Source: Microthyrium microscopicum
Lineage: Eukaryota
NCBI GenBank assembly: GCA_010405405.1
Contig: MU004233.1
Coordinates: 11,327 to 55,522, forward strand
Length of the DNA stretch: 44,196 bases
Direction of reading: 5' to 3'
Below the pieces are notes generated by a model, which saw nothing but the letters and a program-made list of their open reading frames with translations, was not told the DNA's origin and did not search any database. This document shows positions 8,070-31,449 of the stretch, in pieces. Every line of letters begins with the position of its first letter. Position 1 is the stretch's first letter. The position numbers and the translations under genes are program-made.

Positions 8070-8120
8070 AATAGAGGATATATATTTCGTAGGAAACTAT
8101 AATTTAGTAAAGGGATAGCT

Positions 8121-8530
8121 AAGATTCATAACCTAGAAAATTAGGCTACAAGAGGAGAAAATATAAACTTAAAGAAGAGATAACTAAGATTTGTAACCTA
8201 GGAAACTAGGCTACAAGAGGGGAAAATATAAACTTAAAGAAAGGATAACTAAGATTTATAACCTAGGAAACTAGGCTATAAGAAGAGAAAATATAAAATT
8301 AAATAAGGAATACCTAAGATTTATAACCTAGGAAATTAGGCTATAAGAGGGGAAAATGCAAAATTAAATAAGAAATAGCTAAGAACTATAACCTAGGAAA
8401 TTAGGCTAAGTAAGAGAAAAGGAAAACCTAAGTAAGAGAAACCTAAAAACTATAATCTAAGAAATTAGGATACAAAATTAGAAGAGATAGGCTAAGTAAT
8501 AGGATACCTAAAATATATAGCCTAGGGATT
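8121..8530 (+). repeat. 65-bp tandem repeat (~5 units plus degenerate copies) with an internal palindrome
   Basis: Units start at 8121, 8186, 8251, 8316 and 8381. At 8191-8216, TTGTAACCTAG-GAAA-CTAGGCTACAA forms an 11-bp stem with one mismatch. Confidence 0.9.
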
Positions 8531-9439
8531 TTAGCTAGGACTATAGAAAGTAGATAATATAGAGTAAACGTAGTTTTATTAATTAGTATTAGGTTTAGAA
8601 TAGATAATAAGATAGTAGGAAAGAGTTAAGAGGAAGTATAGAGTAATAACTTTAGTAAAAAGGTTTTAAATGTATACAATAGGCTAGCTACAGACTGCAA
8701 CCTAGGAATTTTAAGGCCTATCTACTTAAACTAAACTTTAGAATTTATAAAGAATTATAAAGAAGAAATAAAGGAACTATAAACTTAAAATGCTTTATAC
8801 TTTTTTAGTAAACCTATAGACAAATATTTCGCTAGATATTAATATACGCCTTCTAATATTTAAAAACTTAGCAAATAATTCCTAAAAAGGGAAGGCATAA
8901 TATATTAGGTAGGTAGTAGCGTTTTAATATAGATATAGAGTAAGATAGAGTATAATAGTAGTTACTCTTACCTATATTAGAATATAGGAGTATAAGAACG
9001 TAGGATAGTAGGAGCTAAGTATTAGTGTACTAGATCTATAGTATTAGGAATAACTATATATAATTATAGCATAAGACTTATATTCTAGGGTTATAAACTC
9101 TAAATAGTATATGTCTATTAGTAATTTAGATCTACTTTATATCTTATTTCGTTTAAGTATCTATAATTCTAGGGTTATATTCTATAGTAAGTTATATTAT
9201 CCTTCTAAATAGCAATATTCTTTCTAGCGAATTTAAAACTTATTACTAATTCCTAAGAAGATATTTAATATATTAGATTTGCATTATTCTTATATAATAG
9301 TATTATTAGGATAAATAATAGATTAATTACTATTAAATAATACATAGGTATAGTGTAAATTTTTATATTTAATTAATAGGGCTAGGTAGTTTACTACTAT
9401 ATATTATCTACCTTATAATTCTTTTTATATACTAACTAA

Positions 9440-10770
9440 CTTTTATTATTTATTCTTTTTATTTCTTTTTTTATTTGTCCGTTATTACTAATATAGTTAT
9501 TATAATTATTAATATTATTATTATTTAGTTTTTTATACTCATTATAATAAAGATAAGATATTATATAGTTAAGTTAGAATTATAGTCACTATAAATCGTA
9601 TAACGTAAGTATATCTTAGTTACTATAGAAGAGAAGATTTAGATAATTTCTCTATTCTCTATAGCTACTACTTCTTCTTCTTCTTGTTTTTTGGCTATAG
9701 CTTTCTTCTTAAGCTATAGACGACGAGCTTCTTTGCGTCTAATAAGGATAATAGCTACCCTATATATATTATTACTAAGCCATAGTAGTATAGTAGAGTG
9801 ATAAATTATAGTATCTTAGTTAAGGCTAACTATATTAACCTTATTAAGTCTAGTAAATTTAATCTTTAATTCCCTAGTTACTATAAGCTTTATAAGGAGA
9901 TTAGGGTTCTATTTAAACTTCTGCTCAGTTCTAAAATTTAACGCTTTTTAATAAAAGTAATCTTTCTATCTTTTTTATAAGGCCTAGTTATTACTATATT
10001 TTATACCTTAAGCTATCTTAGGGGATATATTGTTTACTACCTTTTTGATTAATACTTTATACTTAGAGTAAATAGCCTAGGTAATTTTAATATAATATAA
10101 TACGCTATAAACGCGAATTAGCTTATACTATTAGTTGTAGGGTTATACTCTTTTAATTATACTATCTATTCTAAAAAGGTATTTAATAGAATTTTGTACG
10201 TTAGTATAGATATTAAAATAATCTAGTTAAAGGACTATTAGAGAGTTAGATAATAGATATAAGAATCTAAACTCTTAGTCTAATTATATAGTTAGAAAAA
10301 TAGTATCCTAGTATACTAAAGAGATAGAAACATAGTTAATTTAGTTATAAGGTATTAGAGGCAGTAGCTATAATCTATGCATAGCTAAAGGAATAATACT
10401 ACTAATATTATTAATAATTATCGCTTAGGTAGAACTAGTAAGAGTTATTAGCGACGAAAGAATAGATACTAAACTACGCTTATCCTACGATATAGTTAAT
10501 ATTTTAGCAATTCATCCTATCTAAACTTTTTAGCTATTGTTCTTTATAACCTTAGCTTTAGTAGGTTTAGCTTTAGTTGCCTTAGTCTACTCTTTAGTTA
10601 GTTTAACGTTAATAATTAATCTAGTAGTGTTAGACTTAACCTTCTTATCTAAAGCTTTAGTCTTTTTACTAGTTATATTTACCTTCTTTATAGTAGTTAC
10701 TAGCTAACCTTATATACTTTTAGCTATACCTATAGAAGAGTAGTTATTACTAGCTATTTTGCTAGGTATA
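9440..10770 (-). pseudogene. RIP-inactivated NADAR (YbiA/DUF1768-like) domain protein with Lys/Ala-rich N-terminus and charged C-terminal tail
   Basis: Minus frame reads QKFK*NPNLLIKLIVTRELKIKF (~9855-9923), matching KFxQNxxLxxxLxxTG. It then reads WLSNNIYRVAIILIRR (~9735-9782), matching WxGxNxxGxxLxxVR. The upstream HY...SP...W spacing is also compatible. Confidence 0.75.
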
Positions 10771-10861
10771 ATAAAGAACTGCCTACTTATCTAAACAAAA
10801 TATAACTAAGGAAATAATAACTAAAAAAAGGTAGGAATAAAAGGGAATAGCGACTAAGAGC

Positions 10862-11175
10862 CTACTAAAAACTATAATCTAGAAAGTAGAGGAAAAAAGC
10901 TAGGGAAATACTAATAAGCTACTAAAAACTACAACCTAGGAAGTAGAGAGAAAAAGCTAAGGAAATACTAATAGGCTGCTAAAAACTACAACTTAGGAAG
11001 TAGAGGGAAAAAGCTAGTAAAATACTAATAAGCTGCTAAAAACTATAACCTAGGAAGTAGAAAGAAGAAGCTAGTAAAATACTAATAGCTTACTAGAGAC
11101 TATATCTTAAGAAGTATAGGGAAAAAGCTACTAGAATAGTTAAGAGGCTACTAAAACATACAACTTAGGAAATAA
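10862..11175 (+). repeat. 57-bp tandem repeat (~6 units), each with the AAAACTRYAACCTAGGAA motif
   Basis: Units start near 10862, 10919, 10976, 11033, 11090 and 11148. Confidence 0.9.
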
Positions 11176-11716
11176 GTAAGAATTGTTATATATTTTATTA
11201 GTAACTTAAGGATGAGTAGTAAGGTAGGCAAAAGAGCTATAAGAAGCTAATAGAAACTGCAACCTAGGAAATTAATATAGGCTAAAATATAGGAATAGAT
11301 AATAGAGTAGTTTAAAGAAAATTTAGAGGAAATTAAGACTAAATAGTTAGAGGTTTTTAGCTTAACCCTAGCCTTATTAATATTTCTAAGGTTTTATAAT
11401 CCTTAATTTCCTAATATAATGCCTAGTATATACTACTTTAGGTAAGTACAATAAGAATTATGTAGGTTAGATATTTTATAACGCTAAGCCTTATAGTAGA
11501 CTACTATTTTAAGAAGTAATGAGTAAATTAAATATATATAGCTACTTCTTATTATAGTAATAATAGGTAATAAAGGGGGCTTTGCTAGCCTAAATAGGTA
11601 AATATTTCTAACAATATACTCTATATTAAAGGTACTATCTAAAAGCTATAACTTAGAAATATTAGGAAGTAAGTTTTAGCTTTAAATCGTTAGATAAAAG
11701 TTACAACCCTATAAAT

Positions 11717-12350
11717 ATTTAGTTATTTTAGGGTTGTAGTCTTTATGTAGCCCTTTATTAGGTATATATTCCTCTCTACTATTCTTTTCCTAGAGCTATT
11801 TTTACTATATACAAATTTAGTTATTTTAGGATTATAGTCTTTATGTAGCCCTTTATTAAGTATATATTCCTCTCTACTGTTCTTTTCCTAGAGCTATTTT
11901 TCCTATATATAAATTTAGTTATTTTAGGGTTGCAATCTTTATATAGTCCTTTATTTAGATATATATTCCTTCTTATTATTCTATTACTAGACTTTTTTAG
12001 CTATTATAATAGTCGTATATTTTAGAGTTATAGGTTTTGTATAGTCCTTTATTATATATATAATCCTACCTATTCTATACATTTTTAGCTATTATATTTA
12101 TAGTAAATTTTAGGGTTATAGTTTTAATATAGTTCTTTATTATATATATATTCCTTTCTACTATAGTTGTACTAGAAGGTATATTTAGGTACTATAATAG
12201 TAGTGTATTTTATAGTTATAGTTTTCAACTAGCTCTTTGTTATATAATTTAATATTATACTTATAGTCTATAAATATAGTTAGCTTTATCTAATAGTTAC
12301 TTAATAATGTTTTCTAGTATAATATATACTATTATTAGGTTATAGTTTTT
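11717..12350 (-). repeat. 98-bp tandem repeat degenerating rightwards, carrying the same motif in reverse orientation
   Basis: Units start at 11717, 11815 and 11913, followed by looser copies. Each has a variant of TTTTAGGGTTRYAGT, the reverse complement of ACTRYAACCCTAAAA. Confidence 0.85.
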
Positions 12351-12589
12351 ATATATCTCGTATTAGTTATATGCTATATTGTTATATATAAGGTAGTATA
12401 AAATATATACTTATTATATTTATTATTAATATTATATTTTCATATTTACAACTATAACTATACCTACTTAGATGTTACGATTAGTATATATCTTGTTACT
12501 ACTTTATAAAATGTTATCCTATATGTTTATATTGTCTATTCTATTCTCTATTATAAACTATTACATTGTAGCTATATATTATTATATTT

Positions 12590-13739
12590 ACTTTAGTTAG
12601 ACAAGTTCTATAATCTTAACTAATAATTGCTAGGAAGTCTACGTAGGTTATAGTATAATCCTACTATTTTCTATCTTACTTTAGACTATCTTATTTTACC
12701 TTCTATTTTCGTTAAGTGTTCGTAGAGGCTATTAATACTATAATTAACTATTTATCTTCTCTTACTATTAAGGTAGTAAATAGTATAATGCTAGTCGTAT
12801 AGTATATAGTATAATTCTAGTTTACTGTAGTGTTGTAGCTATAGATGTCTTATTATATATATAGGTATATTAGTTTTATTTTTAATTAATTTATCTATAT
12901 CTAACTCTTTTTCGATAGAGTTATCTATTTATTTTTAAGTTATTATAGAATTTATATGTAGGGAAGGTAGCTCGTAGTCTTGGTTTGTATAATATTTTTA
13001 GATTAATTATAGTTTTTATAGTGTATATTATTTGTCGTTATTGTTAGAGTTGTCTACTTTGCTAGTGTCGTTATTATTAATTAAGATTATTTCGTAGTCT
13101 TTTGTAATATTGGTTTAGGAGTTATTAGGGAGATTAGGTTCATTAGTATTTAGATTATCTAGTTATATTTAGGTATATTTAATCTAATTATATTTAGATT
13201 TATATACTTACTATAAAATTATTAAAGACTTTATATTCTTCTATACTATCTAGTCTACTCTCTTCTTTGCTACTTAGCTTAACGCTACTTTTGCTATCTT
13301 TTAGTTTAGTTTCGTTACCTACGTTATTAACGTCTAATATATCTTTATATTTACTACTCTTAAGTAATTTGCTAATATTTTAAAACTCTTAGGACTTATC
13401 TATAGAAGGAGATACCTAAGAGTATATCCTTTAAGCGTAATATTATTATAGTATCGTTATAGTTAAACTTTACTTCCTTAAGTTATATAATAACCTAGTT
13501 CTACTAGTTAGTTAGACTTGCTATATATTTATTAGTTATTAGTTATCTCTTATAAGGGAGTAAGTACAATTAGTTTTCTATTACTTTATACTACGTATTT
13601 CTACGTTATTATTTATCTTACCGTTAATTATCTTTAATATAGCCTATTTAGTAGTGAATCTTTTAGGTTCCTTTTGTATTAGTACTAGTTATAACATATT
13701 AGCTAATGTTTCTATTGCTGCGTAAGAGCTACTAGACAT
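12590..13739 (-). pseudogene. RIPed gene relic, unknown product; possible chromodomain-like C-terminus
   Basis: ATG at 13739 is followed by a coding-like frame (MSSSSYAAIETLANML). Near the end it reads YSINSLYEHLTKIEGKIR*SKVR*K. Confidence 0.45.
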
Positions 13740-14479
13740 TGTATTTTACTATTGCTCTATTATTTAATAAGTAGGTTATTAATTTTTACCTATATATACC
13801 TTTGTCTAACTAGATTTACCTATTCTTATAGCTAATAATAGTAAAATAGCCTAATCTTATCTATTAATACTTATAGTTATCCTATTAACCTAGTAATATA
13901 TATTATTAAGATATTAACTAGAAATGCTATTTTTTGGGGTTATAAATTTAAATAGCTTCTATATAATATTATAACTACTAGTATTATAATTCTTATTAGG
14001 CGAATTTCCTTATCTTAAATAATTATTTTGTTTAGGTATATAACTTCTATCTATTAAAAGCGCTGCCTAAGCTATCCTTACTAAGCCTATATAGTCTTTG
14101 CTTATTATTAAAGACATTTACACTTAGGGTTATATTTAGTTATCTAGTGTACAATTTAACTTAAAGGTAAGAGTAAGAAGTATTAAGTCTATAGTAGTAT
14201 AAGGAAGTAAAGGGTTTTGCCTAGGACTATAGAAAAATAAGGAATTAAAAATGCTTATATTAAGTATATTAGTAATAGGGATAGGAGGTAGTTTTAGGAA
14301 GTTTAGCTCTATATATTCTATTAACTTTAAACTCTTAATATAGTAGTAGTAAATATATATAAGTTATTATTTTGGGTTATATATTTACTTTATAGTAGAT
14401 TAGAGTTCTATATTAAAAGTTTAGAATAAATCTTGTACCTAATATAAAGAATATTTAATTTTAGTATTCTATACTATTT

Positions 14480-17200
14480 ATATATATATTATATATAAAC
14501 TTACCTTTCTTTTATATGCGTTATTTTTAGCGCCTTAGTTATTTTAATACGTTTTCATTAGGTATTTAAATATTATCTATCTTTTAAGTAGATTAGCTAC
14601 GATAAACTATCTGTAAATCTAATAGAGGTATGCTAGATTTAGTAAACCTTTCTTTACTAATAAACCCTTTATTACTAGTTAGATACAAATTATCTTTTAT
14701 TAATATAATATTTTCTACTTCTTTCGTTATAGGCGCTAATCTAGATGCTTATTAGACTAAGTCTCGTTATATATGCTACGAATTACTAGCTATTAGATAT
14801 TCGTAATTTTGGTTATCTAATCCTAGCTAGTAACTTGCCTTATTATATTAAGTCTAATTTAAATAGGTAGACTTAGAATCTTATTAATTAGCGTTATTAA
14901 AATTTATTAACGCATTATTTGCGTCTCTAGGATATATTAACTTAGGTTTATCGTTATCTAATTCTTCATAGCCTTTATTAATAGACGATGCTATTCTTAA
15001 TAGGTTGTTATCGTTACTTATTTTAACGAACTATATAGCTTATCTAGATTGGATATTACTTATAGTACATAGATATATAATTAGTTTGGCTATAGAAAGA
15101 TCTTGCTAGTAGTCTAAGCTAAGAATAAAATTATTAATAGCTTTATAGTACTAAAGATACTTACTATATAGTACTAATTTCCTATATATACTATATAGGT
15201 ATTATATACTATAATAACGATAAAGATACTAGTCTTTTTAACTAAAACTAACTACTTCTAGTTAAGACGAAAGTCCTAGATTAGCAACTAAAAGCATACT
15301 AGCTTTATTAGCCTTAGTAATTATAGCGTTAGTTACTACTTAATTTAATTTACTAGCTATAATGGTATAAGAGTTATTATATATCTCTTTTAGTAAAGTA
15401 AAAGCGTTAGTATTAAGAACGTTAATATATATAGTAAAAAATAGCCCTAATTAAAAAGAATAAGGAATACGTTATCTAGTTTTCTTAGCCTCTTTACTAG
15501 GCTTTGTAGTTTTAAGGAACTTACTACTATTGTAAATAAGTATAACGTTTAGCATAATAGATGCCTTTTAGAGTATAGTATCTCTTAACTATATACTAAG
15601 TTTGTTTTACTCGTTAAGGCTAGTTAGTTCCTAGTTATTTAATATACTATATAGTGCCTTAATAAATTTATAGTAGCTAAAATCCTTTTAATTAGGCATC
15701 CTATTAACTTCCTTAAGTATAGTAGGAAAATATTAACTAGGATAGACTTTAAATAGAGAGCCTAGACAATCTCTCTATATTTAAAGGTCTAGGAAGAGCT
15801 AATTAATAAAGCTAGGCTACTTATATTAACCTTTAGATCTTAGAATATTAATTAAATATGCCTTATTAGCTATGTCAAAATTAGCGTGCTAAGGAGACTA
15901 GTATATATAATTAATTAAGGGAGTATTAAGTCTATAGTACTTGTAAGCATATTATTTCTTAAGGCAAAAGGTCTTACTATAAAGGATAGTCTTTATATAG
16001 TACTAGTATATAGTAGTACTACCCTATATTCTATATGCTAACTATATTTATTTAAATCTAGGCAGCTTCTATTTAGGCTTACTAAGTATTATTTACTTAA
16101 CTTCTATAATAAACGCCTATACTGCTAATTCTGCCACAATTTTAAGGGCTTTATTAAGGTTTCCGTTTATAAGTGCTGCGCAAAAGATATTATATTAGAT
16201 AATAGAGGCTATAAAGGTAGGTTTAATAAGGTAAAGGATATTAGGGAAATTAGGTCTAGAAGGCATTTTATAGAATAATATAATAGTTTATTATAACTTA
16301 TATATAAATAAGTTAATAATTTAAATTATATAGAAATAGTCGTATATTTTATATTATAGGAATTTATCTATATTTTTGCGTCTAGACGTATATTTATTCT
16401 TATTACGTATATGCTAAACTCCTATCTACTACTAAGGCTATATTAACTTAGTCTTAGGCTCTATAGGAATAGATAGTAATTCGTATCTATTAGGTACGCC
16501 TTTTTACGCCTAGTGTAGTTAATAATAAGTTTTCTAATTTTATACTAGAGTTCTAAATAGGAGCTATCTACTAATAGTTAATCTTTATTCGTAGTATACT
16601 ATTCGTATAATTAAAATCTAATGTAGGTATTTTATTAGCTAATTAATTAATTATACGCTAAATCTAGTTTTTAGTTAGTTAGAGTCTAAGTATACTAACT
16701 AGTCCTTTAATCTATTTTAGGATCTTAGTAAGTATATTTACGTAATTATCTTACTAGCTGCTTAGCTCTTATTCTTTTATATATAACTCTAAGTTAGTAG
16801 GAAAGTATATTAAGGGCATTATAAGTACGTTAAGGAGAATAATATCTTCTAACTATATACTTTTAGCATAATTAGTTATATCTAACTTATCTTTATTAAG
16901 ATACTTATTAATAATTTATTAGGTATATTATATAAGCTATAGCGTATGATAAGGAAGTATTTCGTATATAGGTACTTTAACGTTAGCTACGTCTAGTTTA
17001 GGGAATTAGGTACTATCTAGGTTAATAACTTATTTTATCTATACTACTAAATAGGTTTACTTATCTTACTTAGGAACTTAGACTTATAGTTAGACTTCCT
17101 TACTATCTTTAAATGCTCATATAATTTCGTTAGAGTTAGCTCTAGTAAAGTAATATACTTTTTGTCGTACAATTTTACTACTATGTTTTTAACCTAATGC
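14480..17200 (-). pseudogene. RIPed gene relic with Cys/His-rich, putative zinc-binding segments
   Basis: 16821-16937 de-RIPs to AC-x2-C-x14-CD-x2-C-x2-C-x4-C, with only one TGC codon intact. ~15145-15230 de-RIPs to C-x2-C...H-x3-H. The boundary with the adjacent gene is uncertain. Confidence 0.45.
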
Positions 17201-17249
17201 TACTAGTTATATACTTTAAAGCTAAAGGTTTTAGAATATGTCTAGTTTG

Positions 17250-20200
17250 TTAATAAGAGTTTAGCTAAATGTAATAGTTGTATACTTAAACTTCTGCTAT
17301 GAAGTTAGTATATAGTTAGGTAGCATATATCGTCTTAGAGCAGCTATATCTACTTTTGGGGTAAACCTAGTATCCTTAGTCTTTAGGAATGTCTAAATAT
17401 AAGACTTAATAATATATATAATAGCTAAGAAGAATTGTTGCCTTTTCTTTATAGTTAATGCCTTATCTAGACTAATAATAGTCTAGATCTCCTTATATAT
17501 ATTAATAGCTTAAGTAATAAATTATTAATAAGGTAGCTTATGCTATATTAGTTTTATACTAGGTAGCTATATAGTAGAATCTAAAAGGTCTATTAAAAAT
17601 AGGGCGAATTGCCTATTAGATTATATTTTAGTAGCTAATATTAATGCTATAGATTTATTAGACTCTTTAGTTACTATAACTATAGGTCTATATTAAATTA
17701 GTTAAGAGATAATAGAAATATTAAGTCCTCTTAGTTTTATAGCCTCTTTATCTATTAGACGTCTAACCTTTTATAGGAAGAAATCTAGAGAGTAGTTCCT
17801 TTAAGGGTTAATAGCTCCTACTTTAGGTTGTTTTGGCAATTTTGTCTTATTTTGATATAATATATAATACTTATAAAATACTTAGCGTATATATACTTAA
17901 TAATAAAGTTCTCTAATGAACTAGGTAGTCTAAGTATATCTAAAAGAGTTATATAGAAAAGTAGCTTAGATAAAGGTAATCTTAATCTTAGTTTTTTTCT
18001 TATATTAATAAGTAGCATATAATAAATAAAGAGCTTAAGACTAAACGACTAGTTATTAAAAGGTTAAGGCTAGGTATAATAAGTTAAGGACTATAAGTAC
18101 TTAAGCAATTTTAGGTTATAGTACTAAAATTATATTGCTCTAGATAAAATATAATTATTTTAGCTAAATCGTTCTATATTGTTTTATAATAGTATATTCG
18201 TTAAGTCCTAGTTAGAAATATATCTTAGATTTTTTAAGGTTAGATTAAGCTATAGTAATATATTTACGCTATATATTACTATCTCTTGTAACTAGACTAC
18301 TAAAAATTAACTTAAGTATTTAAATATAAATAACTATAGTAGCTAAGTATCACTATTATACTACATTAGTAGCTTGTTTACAATATAAGTTAATTATTAG
18401 TAGTAGTAAATATTAGGTAGTAAGGAGAATTAGCTATAGCTATCTTTTTATAGATTTCTAGATAAAGTAGTTAACTTTAGACATAGAAAGTATCTAATAT
18501 AGGAAATGTCTTAAGACGTTAGGATTAGCATTAGTAAGCTATATCTAGTATAGATATAAGTATATACATTATAAATTTAGTTACTATAGATTACCTTAGG
18601 ATATAATATAGCATTCTTATCATTTTTTTAAAGGTCCCTATTTTATATAGACTACTTATATTAATTATAAAAGATATTAACTTAAAATTAGCGCTTAACA
18701 TAAACTCTAAACGTACTACTCTTACTAGCTTAATAGCTAGTATATACTTAGGTAGTAGCCCTCTATAACTAGTAGATAGTTATTTGTATAGATTACTTAG
18801 GTATATAGTGTTTTTTAATCTAGTTACGTTGTCATCTAGTAGGTCTAAAGTTATCTATATAGTATAAACTAAGTTGCTCTAGATGATTATATTAGAATAG
18901 TATAAGACTCTTATAAATAGTATTAAAGATTTCTTTATAAATTATATATGCTTTCTTATTTACTAGGCTAGCTTTATATGTTAGACTATTAGGCTTATAG
19001 TAAAACTTATAACTACTTACCTTATTAGTAAGAAACTATAGAAACTACTTAGGTTAAATCTTATTACTAGTATTAAGATTGCTATAATACTAAATCTAAT
19101 TTTTACTATATTCTTATTTTAATACTAGTATAATATCCTTAGTAGAGAGTTCATTACTATAAGTGTCTTAGTAAAATAGTATATCTTTATATATAAGATT
19201 AATATATAAATAGCGTAGTTTAACAAACGAAAGGTTAAAATAGTAATTTATATACTCCTAGTAGTTACTAAATCCTTAGATGGAGTTATTAGCTTTCTAT
19301 AATAGTTTGCTATTATGTAATATAAGTATAAGAATAGAATTCTTAAATATATCTAAACTTATTATTTAATCTAATAGATAGGTTATAATATTAGCTTGTT
19401 TATCTTTAGGATTTTTGGTAGTAGTATCCTTTTAGCTTAAGTTTACGCCTTAGAACCTTTTACTATAGTCTAGTATATAATCCTATAGAGATTTAAGGTA
19501 TTTGCCTTAGATTATAAAGGATATGTTAGCTAGGCCTAGCTTTAAGTCATTTTAGTTTCTTATTTCCTATTACGCTATAGCTATTATACGCGTATAATGT
19601 TTATTAAAGGGCATATACTATAGAACATTAATTAGACAAATATCCCTAATAGCTAGAAATAGAATATATTAGTGCTACTATTTAAGTTATTTTACATAAA
19701 GATGCTACTCTCTACTATAGGATATTAAATTAGGAAAATAAACGTAGATACTAAATCCTAATAATAACCTACCTCCCTAAATAGGAACCCTAAGATAGAT
19801 ATTCTTATACTTATATAGGTTTAGAATAGGCTAAATAATATTATATTCCTAATTAAAAATATAAATAGGATGTCTATATTTAATATAATTAGTTTTAAAG
19901 TACCTAAGGGACGTTAAGATATTAATCCTACCTTTATATATAGCTAGTAAAGATAAATAAAGCATAGTGCTATCTTAATTATAGACTCTACGTATATAAA
20001 TCTTATTTAGGTTTAGGACCTATAATTATTTAAGACTAAGGCGTAGCGTCTATCTCTTATTATAAAATATTAAATATTATAGTTTGCGTTAGTTCTTAGT
20101 TAATAGTATATAGGATTTATATACTTAGATAGCCTATATTATATTCTTTTCTACTATTATGCTATTTAGGAATTATAAGGGCATAAGGCTATTCTACTCT

Positions 20201-21250
20201 TTAGATATTAACCTTAAAGAATAAGTATAGTTTAGCTTAATTACGTCTACTACTAGAGAAGGTAAATCTAGTAGGGTAGATAAAGAGGATAAATAACTAC
20301 TAACTAACAGATAGCTAGTATTAGGATAGTTAAATAAATAATTATAATATTGGAATATAAAGTCGTCTATTTCTTGTAATATAAACTAGTAATCTTTAAG
20401 TAAAGGATAAGGTATTATCTAATAACGTAGGATATCTTTTTACTAAGTATTATCTTAAGTAGCTATATAAACGTTAGGATTAAGAGTATCTACTACAATG
20501 TTATTAATATAAGTTATTTCTATTAGCAGTATAGACTATAACTTATTACTATAGGATTCTTTATTATTACTATATTAGAGCAAGGAGATATCTAGGCTAT
20601 CTATATATTTAGTAGAGTATAAAGATTTATTATTACTACTGCTTAAGTATAACTCATCTATGTTTTTAACGTAATTTGCTACGTTATTATATAGTATATT
20701 ACCCTTAGATTATATATTATCTATATTCCCTTCCTTATAGTAATTATTACTATTATATTTATATCTTATATTATAGGTAGGTAGAGAATAAATAGTAATA
20801 GTAATAAAAGGGAGGTTATTTAGCTTAAGTATAGAGTTAGTTACTATAGCGTAACTCTATTAGTTTTAAACTACGTCTAGGAAGTTACTTAATATCATCT
20901 AAACTTAAGGTAGTAAGATAGGTAGAAAGGTTAGAAAATTAAATATAACCTCTTATAATCTAGTTAGAGTTAGTTATAATATAACTACTAGAGGTATACT
21001 TTAATTATACCTAAATAGCCTTAATTATATTCTATGTCGTTACCTACCCTTAGGGCTTAGGATAATAATATCTAGGTTTTAAGCTTATATAGTAGTAGCT
21101 ACTACCCTTTAATAAGATTGCTAATTTCTTAATAATTTGCAAAGAGGGTCTACTATAATTATAACGTTTTATTCTATTAAACGTAATAAAATTTAGATAA
21201 GCCTTAGTACTATCTAGTATTATATTTAGGTAAAGATATTTAGTATATAT
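17250..21250 (-). pseudogene. RIPed long gene relic resembling an uncharacterised fungal protein family
   Basis: Long coding-like frames with de-RIP motifs IYLG...IYVYFPNL...W...LFPAI...LQxxP, L..LW..I, AGL...Y...KEIF...PF...LEQL, FGVRVERR and LGL...YG.IW. The resemblance to fungal hypothetical proteins is from memory, not from a search. It contains the listed 66-aa ORF. Confidence 0.6.
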
Positions 21251-21366
21251 ATAATAGTATAGATAAGGTTAGGATAGTATGCAAAATTAATGTCTTAGAG
21301 AATATTAGTTTACGTAATAAGTATTAATTATAGAATAAGTATAGGTAGTTTAGAGTTTAAGTAGCA

Positions 21367-21432
21367 TTAGTATAGGGTTAGTATAGGGTTAGTGTAGGGT
21401 TAGTATAGGGTTAGTATAAGGTTAGTATAGAG
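21367..21432 (+). repeat. 11-bp telomere-like tandem repeat (TTAGTATAGGG, ~6 copies)
   Basis: Direct reading: ttagtataggg ttagtataggg ttagtgtaggg ttagtataggg ttagtataagg ttagtatagag. Confidence 0.9.
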
Positions 21433-21553
21433 TAATATAAAGAGATCTCTATAAAGTATAGCCTTAAAATTCTATACTATATAGCGGCTTTAGAGTTAAC
21501 TTTACTAAACCTTTACTATTATTAAAAGGGTTTAATTATATTAGTTAAAGAGG

Positions 21554-21719
21554 AACCTAAAAACTATAGCCTAGGAATTTATTACTATATAGTAGTTATA
21601 TAGTTAACTTTATATTTTATAGTATTTAAAATATATATATACTCTATAGTTTAAGAGATACCTAAAAACTATAGCCTAAGAATTTATTACTATATAGTAG
21701 TTATATAGTTAACTTTATT
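21554..21719 (+). repeat. Two ~60-bp direct repeats about 106 bp apart, each starting with the shared motif
   Basis: CCTAAAAACTATAGCCTARGAATTTATTACTATATAGTAGTTATATAGTTAACTTTAT occurs twice. Confidence 0.85.
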
Positions 21720-21879
21720 AATACCTAGTATATATTTTACTAATAACGCTAAGTATAATAAAGTAAGGATAGGTCTTTTACTAGTAGTATATAGTAGAAT
21801 AATAACCCTAATAGGGAAGTAAGTATATTAGTTAAGATATTAAGAGGAACTTATAAGATATAGATAAGTCTTTTATTAT

Positions 21880-24540
21880 TCTAAATAGCTTTGTTTACCT
21901 TAATTTTGCGTTCTATCTTATTGCTTATTCTATCTTGCTACTTATATTAGGGTTAATAGTAACTTCTTTATCCTATACTAGCTTATATATAGCAATTGTT
22001 ACTAAGTAAAATATACTAATCGTTCTTATAGGTAGCAAGCTAGATTATATTACTTATAACTATATCTAAGGTAGAGAAGGTAAATATAGTAGTAGAGGAC
22101 GTAGTAGCTACGAAGGAGGAGGACGTAGTAGCTATAGCAATACTAGGCTAAGATTAAGTTCTATAGAAAACTTCTTTATCTCTAAATCATAGTTACTTAT
22201 AAGAGCCTATAGTTAAATTATACTTTATACTAGAATAGGGTATTAAGAGTGAATAGGTAGCTTTCTCTACTACTAGCTAGTCTTTCCTAACCTATACTAA
22301 GTAACTAGGGTTAATAGCAACTTCTTTATCCTATACTAGCTTATATATAGTAATTATTACTAAACTAGGCTAAGATTAAGTTCTATAGAAAACTTGCTTT
22401 ATCTCTAAATTATAGTTACCTATAAGGAGCTTATAGTTAAAATATACTTTATGCCTTATAATGCTAGAATAGGGTATTAGGAGTATTTTTATTTAAGTAG
22501 ATAGGTAGGCTATGTTAGTAATAGTGAATTAGTCTTAGTAGAACTTCTAGAAGTAGAATATTAAAGGATAGCTTCTTCCTTAGCAATAGTAGAGTTAACA
22601 CTATAGCTATTATACTTTTTAAGATAACTTTATTAATATTATGCGTATCTTTTAGGACAACTTTATTAATGTTATGCTTATATAACTCTAGATAACTATC
22701 TCTTTTAAGATGCTACTGTTATTCTAATACTTAGCTTATTCTAGTCTAATTATATAGTATTAAGTATACTTATTACCCCTTATAGAAAGTCTAAGTCGTT
22801 AGATATACTATAAATACTTAAAGGAATAGCTTATAAGTAAGTACTATAGTTAATAAGAGGCAATTAAAATAACTAGAAGTTAGGAAACTACTATCTACTC
22901 TCTTCTATACTATTAGCTAGTCCTTCTTAACTCGTGCTAAGAGACTAGGGTTAATAGTAACTTCCTTATCCTATACTAGCTTATATATAGTAATTGCTAC
23001 TAAAGTAGATTAAGCTATAGCTATTAGTTTTTTTAATATATCTTTAATAAGAAGCTATATCTATAATAATAGAATATATCTATAATAATAGGATGTATTA
23101 CTAATAATAGAAACTAGTAATAGTAAGAAATTATATTATTAATAAGAGGATAATCTTTAGTTAGGAATATATATATATTAATAAGAAAAGTATATTAGGT
23201 TAAGAAGAGAATAAGCTATCCTCTATAGTAGATAAGCTCTCTACTAATATTATGCTTTATAAGAAGGATAGTTAGAAATATTTTATAGAGTTTTTAGATA
23301 AAAGCTACTATGCTAGGCCTCTAAGTTAAAGTCACTTTTTAAGCTACTATGAAGGATAATTAAACTAATTAGTTATTATATTGCTTTACTATATTAGTTA
23401 GGAAGAATATTAGGTAAGTTATTAGTATAGAAAATAGCCTAAGTATTTATAAGGATAAAGGCGCTATAATCTAAAGAGTTTTATTAATAACTACTCTCTA
23501 CTCTCTTAAATATCTATTTACTCTTGTCCTAAGTATTACTTAACTTATATTAAAGTATTTCTTTAGCTAAAGTAAGAATAGGTCCTTTGCTAGTAAATAA
23601 GGAGTTATACTAACGTACTTAACGTTATTAGGGAAGGATAGTTAGTAGGGTCTAGTAACTACCTTAATAAATTAGAATAAAGAGTTTATAAACACTAAGA
23701 AGATTCTTTCTACTAATTTTTTAGCGCTTTATTTAGTAGGTAATCTTTTTAATACTATCTTATTATTATATCTTATAGAACTAATAGGTATTGAGTATAT
23801 AATATTATAGAATATTATCTTTAATTAGGGTTCCTACTATTTTTATCTATTTAGTGAGTTTAGACTTAGCCTTTTTGTAAAGCTTAGTAAGGAAGCTATT
23901 AATAATTTCGTTATTAAGCTAATTAAGCAGTTTAAGAGTTTAAAGGTCTTTAATAGTAATTAGAGTTCTACTAATATTTAACTATAGTATCTACTATTAG
24001 AACTGCTCTTTATAAGGTAGGTAGTGCTAAAGCTACTCCTAAGCGTATTACTCCTACTAATAACTATAAGATTAGTAGTTAGTTTGTGCTTAAATTTATA
24101 ACGAGATTAAGTAAATAAAGTATCTACGTTAACTAGTTATACTTATTAACTACTAAAAGCAAACTACTCCTTAAAGTACTTCTACTACTAAGCGCTAAGA
24201 TTAAACTATGGAGTTTGCTAAGTTTTATAAGTTTAAAAATCGTTAAATTATAATTTAGACTAGTAATTTACCTAGTATAATAACGTTAATCTAGTAGGCT
24301 CTATCTAGTAAACATTAGACTAGTTATTTAATATCTTAAAATAGTATTAAACTAGATTACTATATATAACTAGGCCTACAAAAGAGGTTAGTAATTATAT
24401 AAAGGATTATACCTTTATTAAAACTTTCTTACGCAGAGTTAAAGATATATATCTTAAGCTTTATTTAGGATATTTTATAATTTATACAAACTATTAGAGT
24501 AGTATATACATTTCTAAGAAATTTAACTTGTTTCTATATA
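21880..24540 (-). pseudogene. RIPed spliced gene relic (one or two genes), low-complexity product with internal repeats
   Basis: Candidate intron at 24376-24432 (GTAAGA...CTAAC...TAG). A ~58-bp module recurs near 21948, 22307 and 22946 (de-RIP ~AVHEPVQDEEVAIDP). A ~110-bp module recurs near 22142 and 22365. Confidence 0.5.
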
Positions 24541-24570
24541 TTATCCTCTATTCTATTTTTAATACTAAAT

Positions 24571-24925
24571 ATTAGGTTAGCGTAGGGTTAGTATAGAGTT
24601 AGCCTAGGTTAGTATATAGTTTAAATACTAGCCTAGGGTTTAAATATTAGCCTAGGATTTAAATATTAGCCTACCTATATATAGGGTTAGCTTAGGGTTA
24701 GCCTAGGGTTATCCTAGAGTTAGCCTAGGTTTAAATGCTAGCTTAGGGTTTAAATATTAGCCTAGGGTTTAAATATTGGCTTGCCTATATATAGGGTTAG
24801 CTTAGGATTAGCCTAGGGTTAGCCTAGGTTTAAATGCTAGCCTAGGGTTTAAATATTAGCCTACCTATATATAGAGTTAGCCTAAGGTTAGCCTAGGGTT
24901 AGCCTAGGGTTAGCTAGGGGTTTAG
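24571..24925 (+). repeat. Compound telomere-like array of TAGGGTTAGCC (11 bp) and TAGCCTAGGGTTTAAATAT (19 bp) units
   Basis: The two unit types alternate in higher-order blocks separated by CCTATATATAG (three times). Confidence 0.88.
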
Positions 24926-25199
24926 AGTACTAGAAGTTTAATCTAGTTAACTTTTTAAGTATAGTTTATTAAATAATACTATTAATATTATATACGTTAT
25001 TATTATTTATGCTTATACTAGTATTATTTCTATATATATTCTTAATCTATTTATATCTTAATTATAATTATTACTATAGCAAGTTATTATATTCTTATTA
25101 TTATAAGTTAGTATTAGTAGAAGAGAGTTATATTAGTAGCAAATATAATAAAGAAGTTGAATATTAAATTTATTAATCTTAATTTAAATCTATCTATTT

Positions 25200-25792
25200 A
25201 CTTTAGTATTTAAAGTATAAATGTTGTCCTATAATTTAACTTAAATTGTAATAACTATTAGTCGTTAGAGTTATAACTCTAATTAATCTTTATTAGAACT
25301 TAAACCCTCTAAGTCTATATTATTCTCTAAGTCTAAGTCGTCCTTATTTAACGTATCTAAGTACTTAAGACCTTTATTACTATTATTATTATTACTATTA
25401 ATATTATTACTATTATTATTATTATTGTTATTATTAGTTATAAAACGTTAGGAAGGTTAACTATATATATATAGAATTATAAACGTTTAGATAAAGTTAT
25501 ATAGCTAGTCTATATTATTAGGATTAAAATCTTTCTATAATTTAATGTCCTATACTATTATATTAGCTAGTATTAGCTCTAGTAAGATTATTAATTATAA
25601 AGGGTTATAAAATCTAAGCAATTCTTTAAGGCGTACATTTAGTTTAGCTTATATTTACTCTTTTGTTAATTCTTCTATTTACTCTTCTATTTACTCTTCT
25701 ATTATTTTATATAGGTAGTAGGCTTTACGTAAAGAACTTATAAGGCTTATAATAATAGATATTATAGATATAGATTAAGTATTAGTAGATAT
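25200..25792 (-). pseudogene. Small RIPed gene relic with Glu-rich segment and an Asp/Asn homopolymer
   Basis: Frame reads SLRKAYYLYKIIEE*IEE*IEELTKE*I*AKLNVRLKELLRF. The in-frame (AAT)n tract at ~25375-25437 is likely former poly-Asp. Confidence 0.45.
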
Positions 25793-26316
25793 AGAAAGAG
25801 AAAGATAGAGATTTAGTATATAAGGTATTTATATTTTAATTTATTATATAGAATTAGGTAAGAGCAAAGTAACGCTTAGTTAGTTACTATATCTAACCTA
25901 GGGACTAGAAGTTACTTACTTACGTTAAGGTATTTCTTACTATTACTATATTGTTATAAATAGTAATTAAAATATTAAGGTTATAATTATAACGTATAGT
26001 AAGTTCTTAAGGTCGTTAGTATTAATATAAGACTACTATTAAGTAACTAGTCTATCTTAAGTAAGTAGTAGCCTAGTTCTTTAACTTTTCTTACTTATAA
26101 TTATTATATAAAAATTAAATGCTAGATTCTAGTTTAGAAAGTTCTAGTGTCTCTAAGCTAGATTTCCTTAGCCTTAGGTATTCTAGTATATATAGTTATT
26201 TTACTTCTAGTTTTTAAATTTTATCTATATTAATAACTTATATAACGTATGCCTTAATGTTTCTTTTTATTATAAATATAATACTATATTATGCTTTCTT
26301 TACTACTAAAGCCTAA

Positions 26317-26504
26317 GAGGTAGATAAAAACTATAGCCTAAGACTAGTATACTACGATTCTTTCTTATTATTATAAAGAGGTATATAAAAGTTGTAACCC
26401 TAAATTAGTATACTACGTTTCTTTTACTATTACTATAAAGGGGTATATAAAAAGTATAACCCTAAAGTAGTATATTATACTAGGTTATAGGTTTTATATA
26501 CCTC
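26317..26504. repeat. Cluster of three forward and one inverted copy of GAGGTATATAAAA plus the shared motif
   Basis: Forward copies near 26317, 26378 and 26440. Inverted copy TAGGTTATAGGTTTTATATACCTC at 26481-26504. Confidence 0.8.
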
Positions 26505-26779
26505 TAAGGTTTAATTTAGATAAATATAATAATGTTTTACGCTTCTTTTATTATTACCTTAAGGGAGCATAATAGAATTATAGTATAAGATTAATATATA
26601 TCTTATACTAAGTTGTAGTTCTATATTATCTATATAGGTTAACAAGTAGTTAATTCTTATTACTTAGGTTCTAAACTATAATCTAAATTATAACTTTAGT
26701 ACTAGGTTATTATTATTATTTAGGTTTTAAGATATATTTTATCTATAATTAAGCTTATACTATCTATATAAATAGTACT

Positions 26780-27545
26780 AATTATTAAAACTTAAAAGCT
26801 AATACCTTAAGAATCTATTTAATAGACTTCTCTATTAGGATAAAGTGCTTTAAACTCTTAGTTTTAAGGGCCCTAGGAGTTAGACGCTATTATGCTTCTA
26901 GCTAGTTATTTAGCGACTACTTTTGTTATCTATAGTAGTTTTAAAGTAATCTTAAAGTCTAGTATATACTTAGCTTTATTGCTAAAGGAGGCTATAAAGT
27001 TATTACGTTTTCGCTAGATAACCTTAGTACTAGTATAGTATTAGCACTAACTAAGACATAATTTTAGTTTAGACTTATATATAAATAAGAAACTATAGCT
27101 AGCTACTTAACTATTTCTAGCTAATAGTCTATATATTATATTTAGTAATAGCTCATTAAACGTTAGGTTTCTATAAACTACTTACGTAAAGATAAATATA
27201 AAAGTATTTTCTAGTACTACGCAAATAGCATTTATTATAGCCAACTTTACGATTAATATTATCATAGTCTATAGTGAGATTAGGCTAATTATTAAGGATG
27301 TTAGTAATAACTTTAATTATATAGCTACTATAACTAAATAGGGCTACGTTTATATTAGGTTTTACTATAAAGGCGTGACTAGATAGCTATATTATAAGTA
27401 TTAATAGCTAGATATAAATAGAAGATACTATTATTAAATCTTACTATTAGTATGCATATTATAGTGCTTTGCACGCTTGCTTCCTAATTAATAACATTAA
27501 AGGCCTTAATTATAAAGTCTTACTAAGTACTTAATATAGTAATAT
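26780..27545 (-). pseudogene. Small RIPed, probably intron-containing gene relic with a Cys-rich patch
   Basis: Frame reads NRKVGYNKCYLRSTRKY (de-RIP C-x2-C-x7-C), followed a few codons later by a GTAAGT donor-like site near 27186. Confidence 0.4.
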
Positions 27546-28766
27546 AGCTAAAATAAGGTTTATAGGTTAGTATATATAGTAGGACTTTCTATATAAAATT
27601 AACTTACTTATTTACTTATTTTATATATTACTATAATATAAACTATTATAAAGAGTAGAGAGTAGAAGAGAAAAGGATAGAGGTAGTAGAGTAAAGGAGA
27701 AAGAGAGAAGTATAGAATAAAAGAAGCAAAGAAAGAAGCTATAAATATAGGTAATATATATATTAGGCTTAGCTAGCGCGTAGGTAATACTATAATTACC
27801 TTTATAGGTAGTATAGTAAACTAGTACTACTTTAAGAATAATAATTAACTTTATATATAAGTATAGAAGCTAGAAACTAGGAAGAAATATTAAATATTAG
27901 TATTAGGAGTTAAAGTAGATATAGATAGATACGTAGATACTAGTAGGTATCTTTATACCTAAGGTAATAGTAGAACCTTATAGAAATTAATATAAGAAAT
28001 ATAGTTTACTTAAGCTAATTTATTTATAAATACGCCTTTAAGCTTTCTATTTAAGTCTTATAATAAGATTAATATATTATTAGGAAATATCTACTAAATA
28101 TATTATCTCTTATTTATTCCTAGATATAGAAGATAGTCTCTAAATAAGGTTAATTAATCTAGAAATAATGAAGAATAATGTTAGAATAGAGTATAGTTCT
28201 TATACTTTTAAAAATAAGATACCTTAACTAATATTAAGCTTTATTGCTAAGACGCGCTGCTAAATTTGATTTAGTAACTAGCTATAATACTAAAAGGGGA
28301 AGTACTTAAGTATATATTAGTATTAGGAGTTAAGGTAGATAAGAGTTAAGGTAGATAGAAGTTAACGTATATAAGAGTTAAAGAGCTAGGAGCTAGAGCT
28401 AAGAGCTAGGAGCTAGATTAAAGAGTAGATATTAAATATATATACTAGTAGTTAAAGCTAATAAAAGCTAGGTACTAAGAGTAGTATATATTAGATTTTA
28501 GTATTAGGAGTAGATAATAAATATTAGTATTAAGAGTTAAAGTAGATAGCTAGGAATTTTTTTAGGGAATTTTCTTAGGTTTATTTTAACTCTAGCGTAT
28601 TTTTGCTAAGTAAATTTTAGGTAGAAAGGTTTAGGTAGAGCTAGAATTAAGGTAAATAGTAACTAAATATTAGTAGTAGTAGCGTATAGTAGTATATATT
28701 TAAAAACTATAAACCCTAACCCTAAATTTATTCTAACTTTAGTACTATAGTTTAGTCTAAAATTTT

Positions 28767-28845
28767 ACTATACTAGTACAATAGTAGTACGTAACTCTAC
28801 TATTATATAAAGTTAAGGTTATAGGTTTAAATCCTACGTATAGTA
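28767..28845 (+). tRNA. RIP-mutated tRNA pseudogene, possibly ancestral tRNA-Gly(GCC), with a ~7-nt intron-like insert
   Basis: Complete cloverleaf: acceptor ACTATAC/GTATAGT, D stem GTAC/GTAC, anticodon stem TAACT/AGTTA, T arm ATAGG-TTTAAAT-CCTAC (de-RIP GTAGG-TTCGAAT-CCTAC), discriminator A. A T-run lies ~30 bp downstream. The anticodon position now reads ACT. Confidence 0.8.
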
Positions 28846-28857
28846 GAGTTACTTATT

Positions 28858-29169
28858 TAATCCTTACAAAGGATATTTTTTTTTACTATAGTAAAAAGAC
28901 ATAGAAAATAAGTAGCTTAACGAGCTAAATATAGATGCATTATCTATTTATTTTTTGGCCTTATGTTAGTAAAGATAGAGGTAATTTTATATATTTTAGT
29001 AACCTTAGTAGTAGTAAGGTTACTAGGTTAATCCTTATAGAGGATATTTTTTTGCTATAATGAAAAGACATAGAAAATAAGTAGCTTAACGAGCTAAGTA
29101 TAGATATATTATCTATTTCTTTTTTAGCCTTATGTTAGTAGAGATAAAGGTAATTTTATATACTTTTAT
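28858..29169 (+). repeat. Two ~140-bp direct repeats (period ~171 bp) immediately downstream of the tRNA
   Basis: TAATCCTTA...AAAGACATAGAAAATAAGTAGCTTAACGAGCTAA...GGTAATTTTATATA occurs at 28858 and 29029. The spacer contains the hairpin AGTAACCTTA-GTAGTAG-TAAGGTTACT. Confidence 0.88.
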
Positions 29170-30802
29170 AGTACTTTTAGGTAGAAGTAACCTTAGTAGT
29201 TACAAGCAAATATTAAGATATATTAAAATTAAATAGCTAAATTCCTCTACAATTAGCGTATATAACTTTATTAACGTTAAAGAAGTAATATAAGTCTTAG
29301 AACAAAGATATACTATAGAAGTTGTTAATATCTAGTAAGATATAGCGCTAAAGTTATATAGTAAGTAAATAGTAAGAACGTATTAAATTTTATAGCTAAT
29401 ACAATTTACTAGATAGTTATTATATAAAGATAACATAAGGTAATTTCATACTAAGTAATAAGAACTACTTTAATATACTTACTAATCTTATATAGACTAA
29501 TAAATTTGTCCTTATTATTATACTCTTATATCTTAATACGCTTTAATGCTCTATAAGTCTAGGCCTTTATATCTAAGTAGTATTAATACTAAAAGTATAG
29601 TAGACCTAAAGGAGGTTTGCATAGTAGAAGGATATAAAGTATATGTAGGGTAGTATTATTAGTAGAATAGAAGAGCTTATTACTTAATAACTCTCTAAGT
29701 TTTTCTAGGATATATTCTAGGCTACTTTAGTTAGTTAGTATAATAAGATTAGTATTAATATTAAGCTCTATTAAGTATATTTACTTTAATATATTTTATA
29801 GTCCTTTTAGAAACTTACTTATCTCTCTAAGGGCTAATTTATTAAAGTGCTAGTTATGTGTATGTTTATTATAGTTTTGCTATATTTTATAAGTAGTATA
29901 TTGCTATTATAAGTCTTTAACTAGTATAATTAATAGTAGAATAGGTAGTTTCCTTTTATATAGAGTTTATTATTAGAGAATATAGAAGAATAGTATTTTT
30001 ATAATCGCTAGGTAGAAAAAAGTAGTAGTATTAAAGAGTAGAGTTAGTAATATTTTAGTTTAGGGTTAGGTAAGGGTTTAGCTAAGGTTAAAGGAACTAG
30101 TAAACCCTATAATAATATGCTCCTTCCTTTATCTTTTATATCTTAATTATTATCTATACTATCTTCTTTAGTATATACAAATTATTTAATATTTACTATA
30201 ATAGAGTAGGGTAGTACCTATTATTACTATATCCTAGTCTTATAATAAGATACTAAAAAGCTATTTAAAGTCTATAACCTAGTTATTTAGTAGTCTTATA
30301 TTATAATAGTTAGTAACTATAGTACGTAGAGTAAATATATTTATTTAAGACTATTAACTTTTAGCTTAATTACAGTATAGCGTAGTATAGCGCAGTGTAT
30401 TAGTAATCTAGATATTACTATAGGCTTCTTAAAAACTATAGCCTAGGAGGAATATTAAAAAAGCTAGGTTATAGTTTTTAAAGAGTCCTTTAGAGTAAGT
30501 TACTAAGACTACTAGAATTAAATAGAGAGTTAACTTTAGACGAAGTAAATATAAGTAAATAATATATAGAGCTATAGGGTAGAGTAGTATTATACTATTA
30601 GGTATTAGTTTAGTAGGTATTGTCACTAATAGTTAAAAGAGAGGTTATATTCTATTAGTAAGTTACCTTACTAAGTCTCCCTAACGTAGTATTTTAATAA
30701 TAGAATTTTTACTAAGTCCTAACTTCGTACTATTAGATCTATCTACTTAATAAGAGTATTATATTATATAAAATTATATATATTTAATAGAGAACGTTAA
30801 CC

Positions 30803-31111: not shown

Positions 31112-31449
31112 TTTCTTCTTATTACGTAAAACTTATATCTCTTATCTATATAAACTTATTTTAATTACTCTTTAAGCTATATAATATATTATTCTTATAT
31201 TTAAGCTTTATTTATTTATTTTATTTAAAATACTATAACTTTTATTACTATCTAGTCTTCTTCTATATAATCTCTATTTTATATAAAATATTATAAATTA
31301 GCTAATTTAGTCTTATTTTCTAGGATATTATTAGTACTTACTTTTTACTTACTTTTATATTAGGGTAGTAATAATAAAAAAATAATATATTTCTACTATT
31401 ATAGTTAATTATACTACTAGTATTTTATAGTATTCTTAGTACTATTATC

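Follow-up and report, generated by a model that had tools for sequence, protein, structure and literature searches.

A recurring sequence module in mirror-image arrays within RIP-mutated DNA of Microthyrium microscopicum

In a 44,196-nucleotide stretch of the genome of Microthyrium microscopicum (GenBank assembly GCA_010405405.1, contig MU004233.1, forward strand, positions 11,327 to 55,522; hereafter the window, numbered from its first letter), we detected a module of about 40 bp that recurs in clusters, here called zones, in which the forward (+) copies lie to the left and the reverse (-) copies to the right. All copies have decayed under repeat-induced point mutation (RIP), and the block that carries them is present in multiple copies and is possibly subtelomeric. 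The module belonged to a repeated, probably mobile, family of DNA. Tentatively, and with less than even confidence, we favour the interpretation that the zones are protein-recognition modules arranged as internally repetitive inverted repeats, similar to those of foldback and Galileo elements, and that the multiplicity and mirror polarity of the modules served the pairing of the arms.

The module consists, in this order, of TAAAGAGG, a spacer of 6-8 nt, TAAAAA, CTGCA(A/G)CC and (C)TAGGAA, and its strongly conserved block spans approximately 19-21 nt. The original prediction, made by inspection of the sequence, had proposed an 18-mer motif and quoted three copies, all of which are found where it placed them (AGACTGCAACCTAGGAA at 8692-8708, GAAACTGCAACCTAGGAA at 11253-11270 and TAGGGTTGCAATC at 11925-11937). 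The motif is real, but its conserved part exceeds the 18-mer, with a TAAAGAGG-like box and a run of A preceding the core. This upstream box and the A-run are common to the repeat units, which had been described as otherwise unrelated, a description that has to be dropped. Arrays with units of 65, 57, 98, 62 and ~105 bp have only the module and the weak upstream box in common, and the ~20-nt block is kept across these five unit lengths inside tandem units that are otherwise diverged, as would follow from constraint on the module at the time before RIP. Likewise, one motif does occur in both directions as had been claimed, yet in the form of two variants, forward AACCTAGGAA and reverse AACCCTA(G/A)AA, that are one transversion apart; a third variant is CTATAGCC. 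Alignment of the units shows that single units are directional rather than palindromic, palindromes being formed only where + and - copies face each other.

The recurrence of the module is well beyond the expectation from base composition. The RIP-tolerant 14-mer YTRYAAYYYARRAA has 12 exact matches, all on the + strand and all within 8191-8708 or 10872-11659, compared to 1.17 in dinucleotide shuffles, none of 100 of which reached 12; when one mismatch is allowed, there are 43 matches versus 22.1 expected. An nhmmer profile built from 19 copies chosen as independent yielded 59 matches at E<=10 and 36 at E<=0.05 (26 on the + and 10 on the - strand), and all 36 fall within 2897-30501. The predicted number of more than 30 copies is thus borne out, although tandem paralogues make up about half of the 36, which leaves only about 19 independent loci. 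At the same threshold, there is no match in 1-2896, 12370-21433 or 30502-44196; the comparison with other DNA of the window that is equally RIP-mutated, ~23 kb in all, gives zero matches. In 30 dinucleotide-shuffled windows, the mean was 0.3 matches. Because the profile had been trained on some of the copies that it matched, we also ran leave-one-zone-out models. The omitted zone was found again at E<=0.05 in six cases of seven, with at most one match outside the zones, and only the isolated weak copy at 28680 was missed. Training on zone 2 alone (see the list below) gave a model that found 12 copies in five other zones. A 13-nt pattern from zone 2, when sought elsewhere, was only weakly enriched (3 matches versus 1.05 expected with no mismatch, and 35 versus 24.3 +/- 4.4 with one), so that the signal requires the whole module and not the core alone.

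In view of these results, it is extremely unlikely that the module arose by chance or because RIP products converged on words such as CTATAACCTAGG. It is true that the C and G remaining after RIP stand mainly in CCTAGG, CCCTAA and similar words, that the whole window is enriched in related 8-mers, and that the 13-nt pattern is only weakly enriched. However, convergence accounts neither for the cross-validated profile matches in six of the seven zones, nor for the contrast with the ~23 kb of equally mutated DNA and the shuffled windows, nor for the retention of unmutated CTGCAACC / TTGCAACC in three copies.

The copies are distributed as follows (nhmmer coordinates).

Zone 0: 2897-2937 (+), 3694-3730 (+) and 3745-3784 (+) facing 3792-3834 (-), with E-values of 6e-4, 6.5e-4, 2.2e-5 and 1.2e-4.

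Zone 1, left arm: 8103-8711 (+), six modules in a 65-bp array (8103-8466) and a single copy, the least mutated, at 8668-8711 (CTGCAACCTAGGAA).

Zone 1, right arm: 9080-9111 (-; E=0.0074) and 9165-9191 (-; weak, E=2.2), two modules of the AACCCTAGAA variant ~80 bp apart.

Zone 2, left arm: 10852-11714 (+), five modules in a 57-bp array, a weak sixth at 11138, and single copies at 11239-11273 (CTGCAACCTAGGAA), 11624-11661 and 11677-11714.

Zone 2, right arm: 11725-12369 (-), six modules at E<=0.05 and a weak seventh at 12018-12056, in 98-bp units with degeneration increasing toward the right; the variant is CTGCAACCCTAAAA.

Zone at 21542-21685: (+), two modules of the CTATAGCC variant in a ~105-bp repeat, E-values of 3.6e-6 and 4.3e-6.

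Zone D: 26304-26514, three + modules in 62-bp units (26304-26467) facing one - module (26477-26514), together a ~70-bp palindrome centred near 26477.

Copy at 28680-28725: (+), a weak module (E=0.03) the core of which runs into two telomere-type units, AAAAACTATAAACCCTAACCCTAA.

Zone 30: 30249-30286 (+) and 30408-30449 (+) facing 30464-30501 (-), the inner pair being a hairpin with 18-19-bp arms.

The mirror polarity that had been proposed for four zones was observed in each of them: 8103-8711 against 9080-9111 (with the weak copy at 9165-9191), 10852-11714 against 11725-12369, 26304-26467 against 26477-26514, and 30408-30449 against 30464-30501. Two zones, 2897-3834 and 21542-21685, had not been listed; both were found again when left out of the training, and the first is a fifth polar zone, located outside the range covered by the prediction, with the copies at 2897, 3694 and 3745 on the + strand and the one at 3792-3834 on the - strand. 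Hence, in all five zones that contain both orientations (2897-3834, 8103-9191, 10852-12369, 26304-26514 and 30249-30501), every + copy lies to the left of every - copy. The probability of this order is ~2e-4 when arrays are counted as single, randomly oriented blocks, for zones that were delimited after looking at the data. Furthermore, the centres of three zones are tight inverted pairs whose folds are better than those of shuffled sequences, with z-scores of -5.35 (11696-11744), -2.8 (~26449-26495) and -2.5 (30431-30479).

The window is AT-rich throughout (G+C of 16-28% per kb over its whole length), and in every 2-kb bin the dinucleotide indices are those of RIP, with TpA/ApT at 1.5-1.86 and (CpA+TpG)/(ApC+GpT) at 0.03-0.26; the whole window is RIP-mutated DNA. 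Because RIP makes only transitions, the sequence reduced to purines and pyrimidines (R/Y) is a faithful record of the state before RIP, and we repeatedly compared sequences in this form. The unit lengths given in the original prediction were recovered by Tandem Repeats Finder (65 at 8110-8408, 57 at 10862-11171, 98 at 11710-12164 and 62 at 26315-26474), and its ~106-bp unit corresponds to the self-match of 21546-21718 with 21438-21613. Array units match each other at only 79-88% by this program, yet they are R/Y-identical over 204 nt (8109-8377), 170 nt (10862-11088) and 141 nt (11717-11955). The arrays were accordingly near-homogeneous before RIP, and the differences between units are due to RIP. 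The R/Y record thereby makes the order of events readable, with amplification first, then duplication, then decay.

The decay extends to the center of the module. The core TGCA comprises both target dinucleotides of RIP and is intact in only 3 of the 39 listed copies, half-mutated in 7 and converted to TATA in 27. Because RIP removed TGCA in all but these three copies, the sites are fossils rather than working sites; they decayed like neutral DNA and have no detectable function at present. Such neutral decay would also be expected of an old, functionless minisatellite family, in which the shared block is simply the slowest-changing part and the mirror polarity results from local inverted duplications in heterochromatin. 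Most copies are indeed tandem paralogues, and the window resembles repeat-rich heterochromatin with further satellites at 1-1188 and 43235-44196. We nevertheless consider this explanation quite unlikely: the same convergent order is seen in five zones, the arms match over the module only and not over longer inverted duplications, one ~20-nt block is kept across five unit lengths, and the cross-validation and the in-window controls count against it as well. The two satellites, built of 194/405-bp units (1-1188) and ~94-bp units (43235-44196), are RIP-diverged, unrelated to each other and both devoid of the module.

Additional evidence on the history of the block comes from four sequencing runs that contain 76-80% of the sampled words of 8000-12500, no RNA data set being listed among the runs with these words. 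All four stem from one sample, possibly of the source strain itself or of a strain closely related to it. Between 44 and 299 contigs per run were placed on 7500-13000 at >=80% likeness. These contigs fall into classes ranging from >99% to <90% alike, in a comparison in which depth does not stand for copy number and which covers 40 of 681 differences in its listing. In run X1, the differences comprised 149 C>T, 252 G>A, 69 A>G and 70 T>C, with each class of transversions at 6 or fewer. Because the differences are almost all transitions, the zones and the segments between them (hereafter bodies) exist in several RIP-diverged copies. Among the differences listed, the consensus C is present in other copies at the degenerate cores 8456, 11653 and 12026. 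Contigs that skip 171 nt (3 x 57, in the left-arm array of zone 2), or that have 59 other letters in place of 157 nt, indicate that arrays vary in unit number between copies. The other genomic copies diverge inside 9520-10510, with loose ends at 9517-9525 and 9726-10510. The copies are 87-95% alike while the DNA is at ~25% G+C, from which we infer that much of the RIP predates the last duplications. All contigs differ from the window at several places (for example, 7606-7607, 8456 and 9419-9425); together with the word share of 76-80%, this means either that the runs come from a close relative or that the assembly is in error at these places.

In the foldback-like interpretation, the module forms inverted pairs, and the module with its flank was amplified into tandem sub-repeats on either side, so that each zone is an internally repetitive inverted repeat, from a ~90-bp hairpin (30408-30501) to 1.5 kb (10852-12369), an anatomy known from foldback/Galileo-type or MITE-like DNA elements. 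The module would probably be the binding site of a transposase or recombinase, and many sites in mirror polarity would let this protein pair the two arms. Several duplications of the whole block within the genome followed, one or more of them placing it beside telomere-type repeats, and RIP inactivated the block and left the fossil. Here, we take the zones, and not the intervening segments, as the units, because the bodies lack homology to one another and because the facing ends would otherwise lie 12-20 nt apart by chance. For the same reasons, we rejected the possibility that the bodies are transposons flanked by modules: no homology between bodies was found at the protein level or in R/Y space, and three pairs of facing ends only ~12-20 nt apart would have to be coincidental.

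Several observations weigh against this interpretation. Diverged paralogous contigs span body and zones (for example, 7664-7941 and 8047-8649, each ~88% alike), so that zones and bodies were duplicated together, and no site devoid of a zone was found among the contigs on 7500-13000. The arms of the large zones are not mutual inverted repeats beyond the ~30-nt module: those of zone 2 match over ~28-30 nt and then diverge, and the 57-bp and 98-bp units align weakly (z = 3.0), whereas the arms do match in the small zones 26304-26514 and 30408-30501. The nhmmer profile detected no clear - partner for the copies at 21542 and 21647. The flanks are blurred by RIP, such that no target-site duplication is readable; an ungapped comparison of the arms was misregistered in three zones and is uninformative after RIP. 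Finally, no transposase or other protein family was recognised in the segments scanned.

We also noted two other sets of repeats. Arrays of 11-bp units, in the sense of the - strand, are located at 24575-24919 and 21367-21430 ((AACCCTAGGCT)n and (AACCCTATACT)n); they contain the word AACCCTA, as the module does, and the second lies directly to the left of the + modules at 21542 and 21647. In addition, a segment of ~58 nt occurs three times on the - strand (21948-22005, 22306-22363 and 22946-23003), 95% alike, each time with ...ATAAAGAAGTTACTATTAACCCTA. Although missed by the profile, these segments may represent - partners, in degenerate form, of the two + modules just named.

No open reading frame of 100 codons is present in any frame of the whole window. 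Stop density and three-base purine periodicity nonetheless mark stretches that were once coding, such as 3600-7800, 9300-10800 and 18600-19200, and the periodicity is absent from the repeat zones. One of these stretches is delimited as follows.

Former coding stretch: 9558-10790, between zones 1 and 2, ~410 codons.

This stretch shows three-base purine periodicity, and stops are sparse in its frames +2 and -1; the periodicity and stop counts fit both strands of one codon phase. Searches for protein families were blank. With stops read as X, Pfam gave no family in the six frames of 7001-19002, in the three minus frames of 1234-8102 or in one codon phase on both strands of 31002-37499. The minus-strand former reading frame at 5301-7901 had no phmmer match among 1.84 billion representatives and no match in a word-index search. 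Because no segment gave a positive control, these blanks show only that the proteins have become unreadable through RIP. The same holds for a viral or rep gene, none of which was recognised in the scanned segments.

The alternation of former coding stretches and zones is what would be expected if ~1.2-30.8 kb were one large multigene mobile or virus-like element, the zones being intergenic cis-elements (enhancer, origin or terminator) bound by a protein of the element, in the manner of baculovirus homologous regions (hrs) or plasmid iterons. The zones lie in stretches without the three-base periodicity, between stretches that have it; the bodies are mutually unrelated, as is expected of different genes; colinearity extends over the border of body and zone in paralogous contigs (for example, 8047-8649); and the equally RIP-mutated 30502-44196 contains no module at E<=0.05. 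However, no gene of any kind was recognised in the scanned segments, no element ends could be defined, and ~9 kb of the supposed element (12370-21433) contain no module at this threshold. Moreover, single units are not palindromic, unlike those of hrs, and mirror polarity is absent from iterons. On balance, we regard such an element as unlikely, if by no means far-fetched. Of the binding sites for an element-encoded protein that had been suggested originally, what survives as the best reading is a repeated cis-acting recognition module of a mobile or repeated element; a role as enhancer or replication origin is not supported, since nothing in the analysis points to either, and the likeness to hrs and iterons is weakened by the same two features of palindromy and polarity.

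A different line of evidence connects the module with chromosome ends. The copy at 28707, in the weak module 28680-28725, runs into CCCTAACCCTAA, the only double telomere unit of the window, and in a contig of run X4, CCCTAACCCTAACCCTAACCCTAAC immediately precedes 11836, a position within the core of a module in the 98-bp array. The at least four CCCTAA units that abut the array in this contig correspond, in that genomic copy, to a chromosome end or, alternatively, to an internal tract of telomere repeats of some length. In none of the remaining copies does the telomere-like sequence exceed AACCCTAA, as compared to two telomere units at 28714 and at least four at 11836 in the paralogous contig. 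Over the window, AACCCTAA occurs 19 times, versus 5.5 expected under an order-3 Markov model. It can therefore be proposed that the 3' half of the module, CAACCCTAA, was a telomere C-strand seed and that the modules are junction relics, left behind either by a telomere-associated element or by breakage with subsequent healing in subtelomeric blocks that chromosome ends exchange. There are precedents in fungi: Fusarium telomere retrotransposons combine dense tandem repeats, single telomere-like junction units and RIP-decayed copies (PMC12857005), and a Penelope-like element and a RecQ helicase are described at Leptosphaeria telomeres (PMC3105345).

Set against this, the modules occur in both orientations, whereas the Fusarium-type elements keep one orientation toward the chromosome end (PMC12857005); the commoner forward variant reads CCTAGG, which is not a telomere unit; and, relative to the module, the telomere sequence is on one strand in the first of the two associations and on the other strand in the second. 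No reverse transcriptase was recognised in the scanned segments, where no protein detection worked on the RIP-mutated DNA. The 6-nt duplication at 28714 could be simple slippage, and the end of the run X4 contig is only 25 nt long and may belong to an internal tract. We therefore deem an origin of the modules at chromosome ends very unlikely. A combined scenario, in which ~2.9-30.5 kb would be the RIP fossil of a multigene mobile or virus-like element with genes separated by hr-like mirror arrays (protein-bound enhancer, origin or terminator), its copies residing in blocks that move between chromosome ends with the participation of CAACCCTAA, has in our estimate a similarly slim probability. 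All the same, if any of these findings could open a new direction, it is only the hint at telomere repeats.

A relic of a transfer RNA (tRNA) gene follows the module that runs into CCCTAACCCTAA, some 50 nt downstream of it, at 28767-28845 (+; Rfam, 46.2 bits, E=7.6e-7). It is RIP-mutated, with the stems kept as A-U pairs and an 11-nt insert at the anticodon loop, is not called by ARAGORN, and is the only Rfam match in the window. Elsewhere in the window, 31000-37000 has a lower G+C content (16-18%), a GC skew of -0.27 to -0.61 and a coding-type periodicity at 33300-34200, and looks like an element distinct from 2.9-30.5 kb. Further to the right, a direct repeat (37591-37803 versus 38712-38924, 93% alike) encloses an inverted repeat (38092-38524 versus 38326-37829, 77% alike) that is unrelated to the module, and 37591-38924 resembles a small element with terminal repeats. 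Ten N at 1224-1233 represent an assembly gap or a withheld stretch.

The arrangement described here has partial counterparts in several known systems; a literature search with the motif strings themselves matched only unrelated papers. In En/Spm, with the 12-bp motif of TnpA, and in the Tc1-like elements with inverted repeat/direct repeat (IR/DR) ends, the sites flank the transposase gene. The window resembles these ends, in which several copies of a short protein-binding motif are direct in one end and inverted in the other, but differs in that only 12-400 bp, free of any gene, separate the facing arms and that the segments between the zones are mutually unrelated. Baculovirus hr units each contain an imperfect palindrome, and plasmid iterons are 17-22-bp direct repeats without mirror polarity, located next to a rep gene and an AT-rich region of unwinding. 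The clusters of motifs dispersed between element genes and the tandem units of 50-100 bp are reminiscent of both systems. Unlike in hrs, however, it is only whole zones and not the units that are palindromic; as for iterons, the arrays are direct, but their spacing is 57-105 bp, their polarity is mirrored, and no rep gene was recognised. The definition of a miniature inverted-repeat transposable element (<800 bp, noncoding, with terminal inverted repeats) applies only to 3745-3834, 26304-26514 and 30408-30501. The CENP-B box is a 17-bp protein-binding box that is kept in otherwise diverging satellite units. The module is similar to it as a short box kept, within heterochromatin-like DNA, in tandem units that otherwise vary; CENP-B boxes, however, show no such polarity, and neither placement at a centromere nor a binding protein has support here.

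With the telomere-associated FoTeR/MoTeR retrotransposons and the Penelope-like element Circe, the window shares dense tandem repeats, telomere-like junction units, RIP-decayed or truncated copies and blocks at chromosome ends (PMC12857005, PMC3105345). Those elements have a fixed orientation toward the chromosome end and a reverse transcriptase, whereas the 26 + and 10 - copies of the module alternate by zone.

The comparison to foldback elements (Drosophila FB, Galileo and Tetris) is the one on which we tentatively settle. Several differences are apparent: the host is a RIP-competent fungus, the arms of the two large zones share only the ~30-nt module and not, as in classical foldback elements, their full length, and no transposase was recognised here, the zones being known only from the RIP-mutated window and the contigs. 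Among the 15 titles listed in a literature search for foldback elements in conjunction with RIP, none named a fungal foldback element. Should the module be the site of a transposase or recombinase, the zones would clearly exemplify, in a fungus, inverted repeats of the foldback-like, internally repetitive kind, and would illustrate the seeding of minisatellites by such ends. For practical purposes, the findings are of modest value, given that the copies are dead, that the protein partner is unreadable and that placement requires a whole genome or less mutated relatives. The likenesses, on the other hand, concern the architecture itself. Foldback elements have inverted arms made of tandem sub-repeats, each with a short conserved site; the length of the arms varies between copies; and the sub-repeats can seed satellites. 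Tetris is the subject of PMC4079207. In Galileo, the sites bound by the THAP domain of the transposase lie within the tandem repeats of its long inverted repeats (PMC3688188), and zones 1 and 2 likewise consist of tandem sub-repeats (65, 57 and 98 bp) in mirror polarity.

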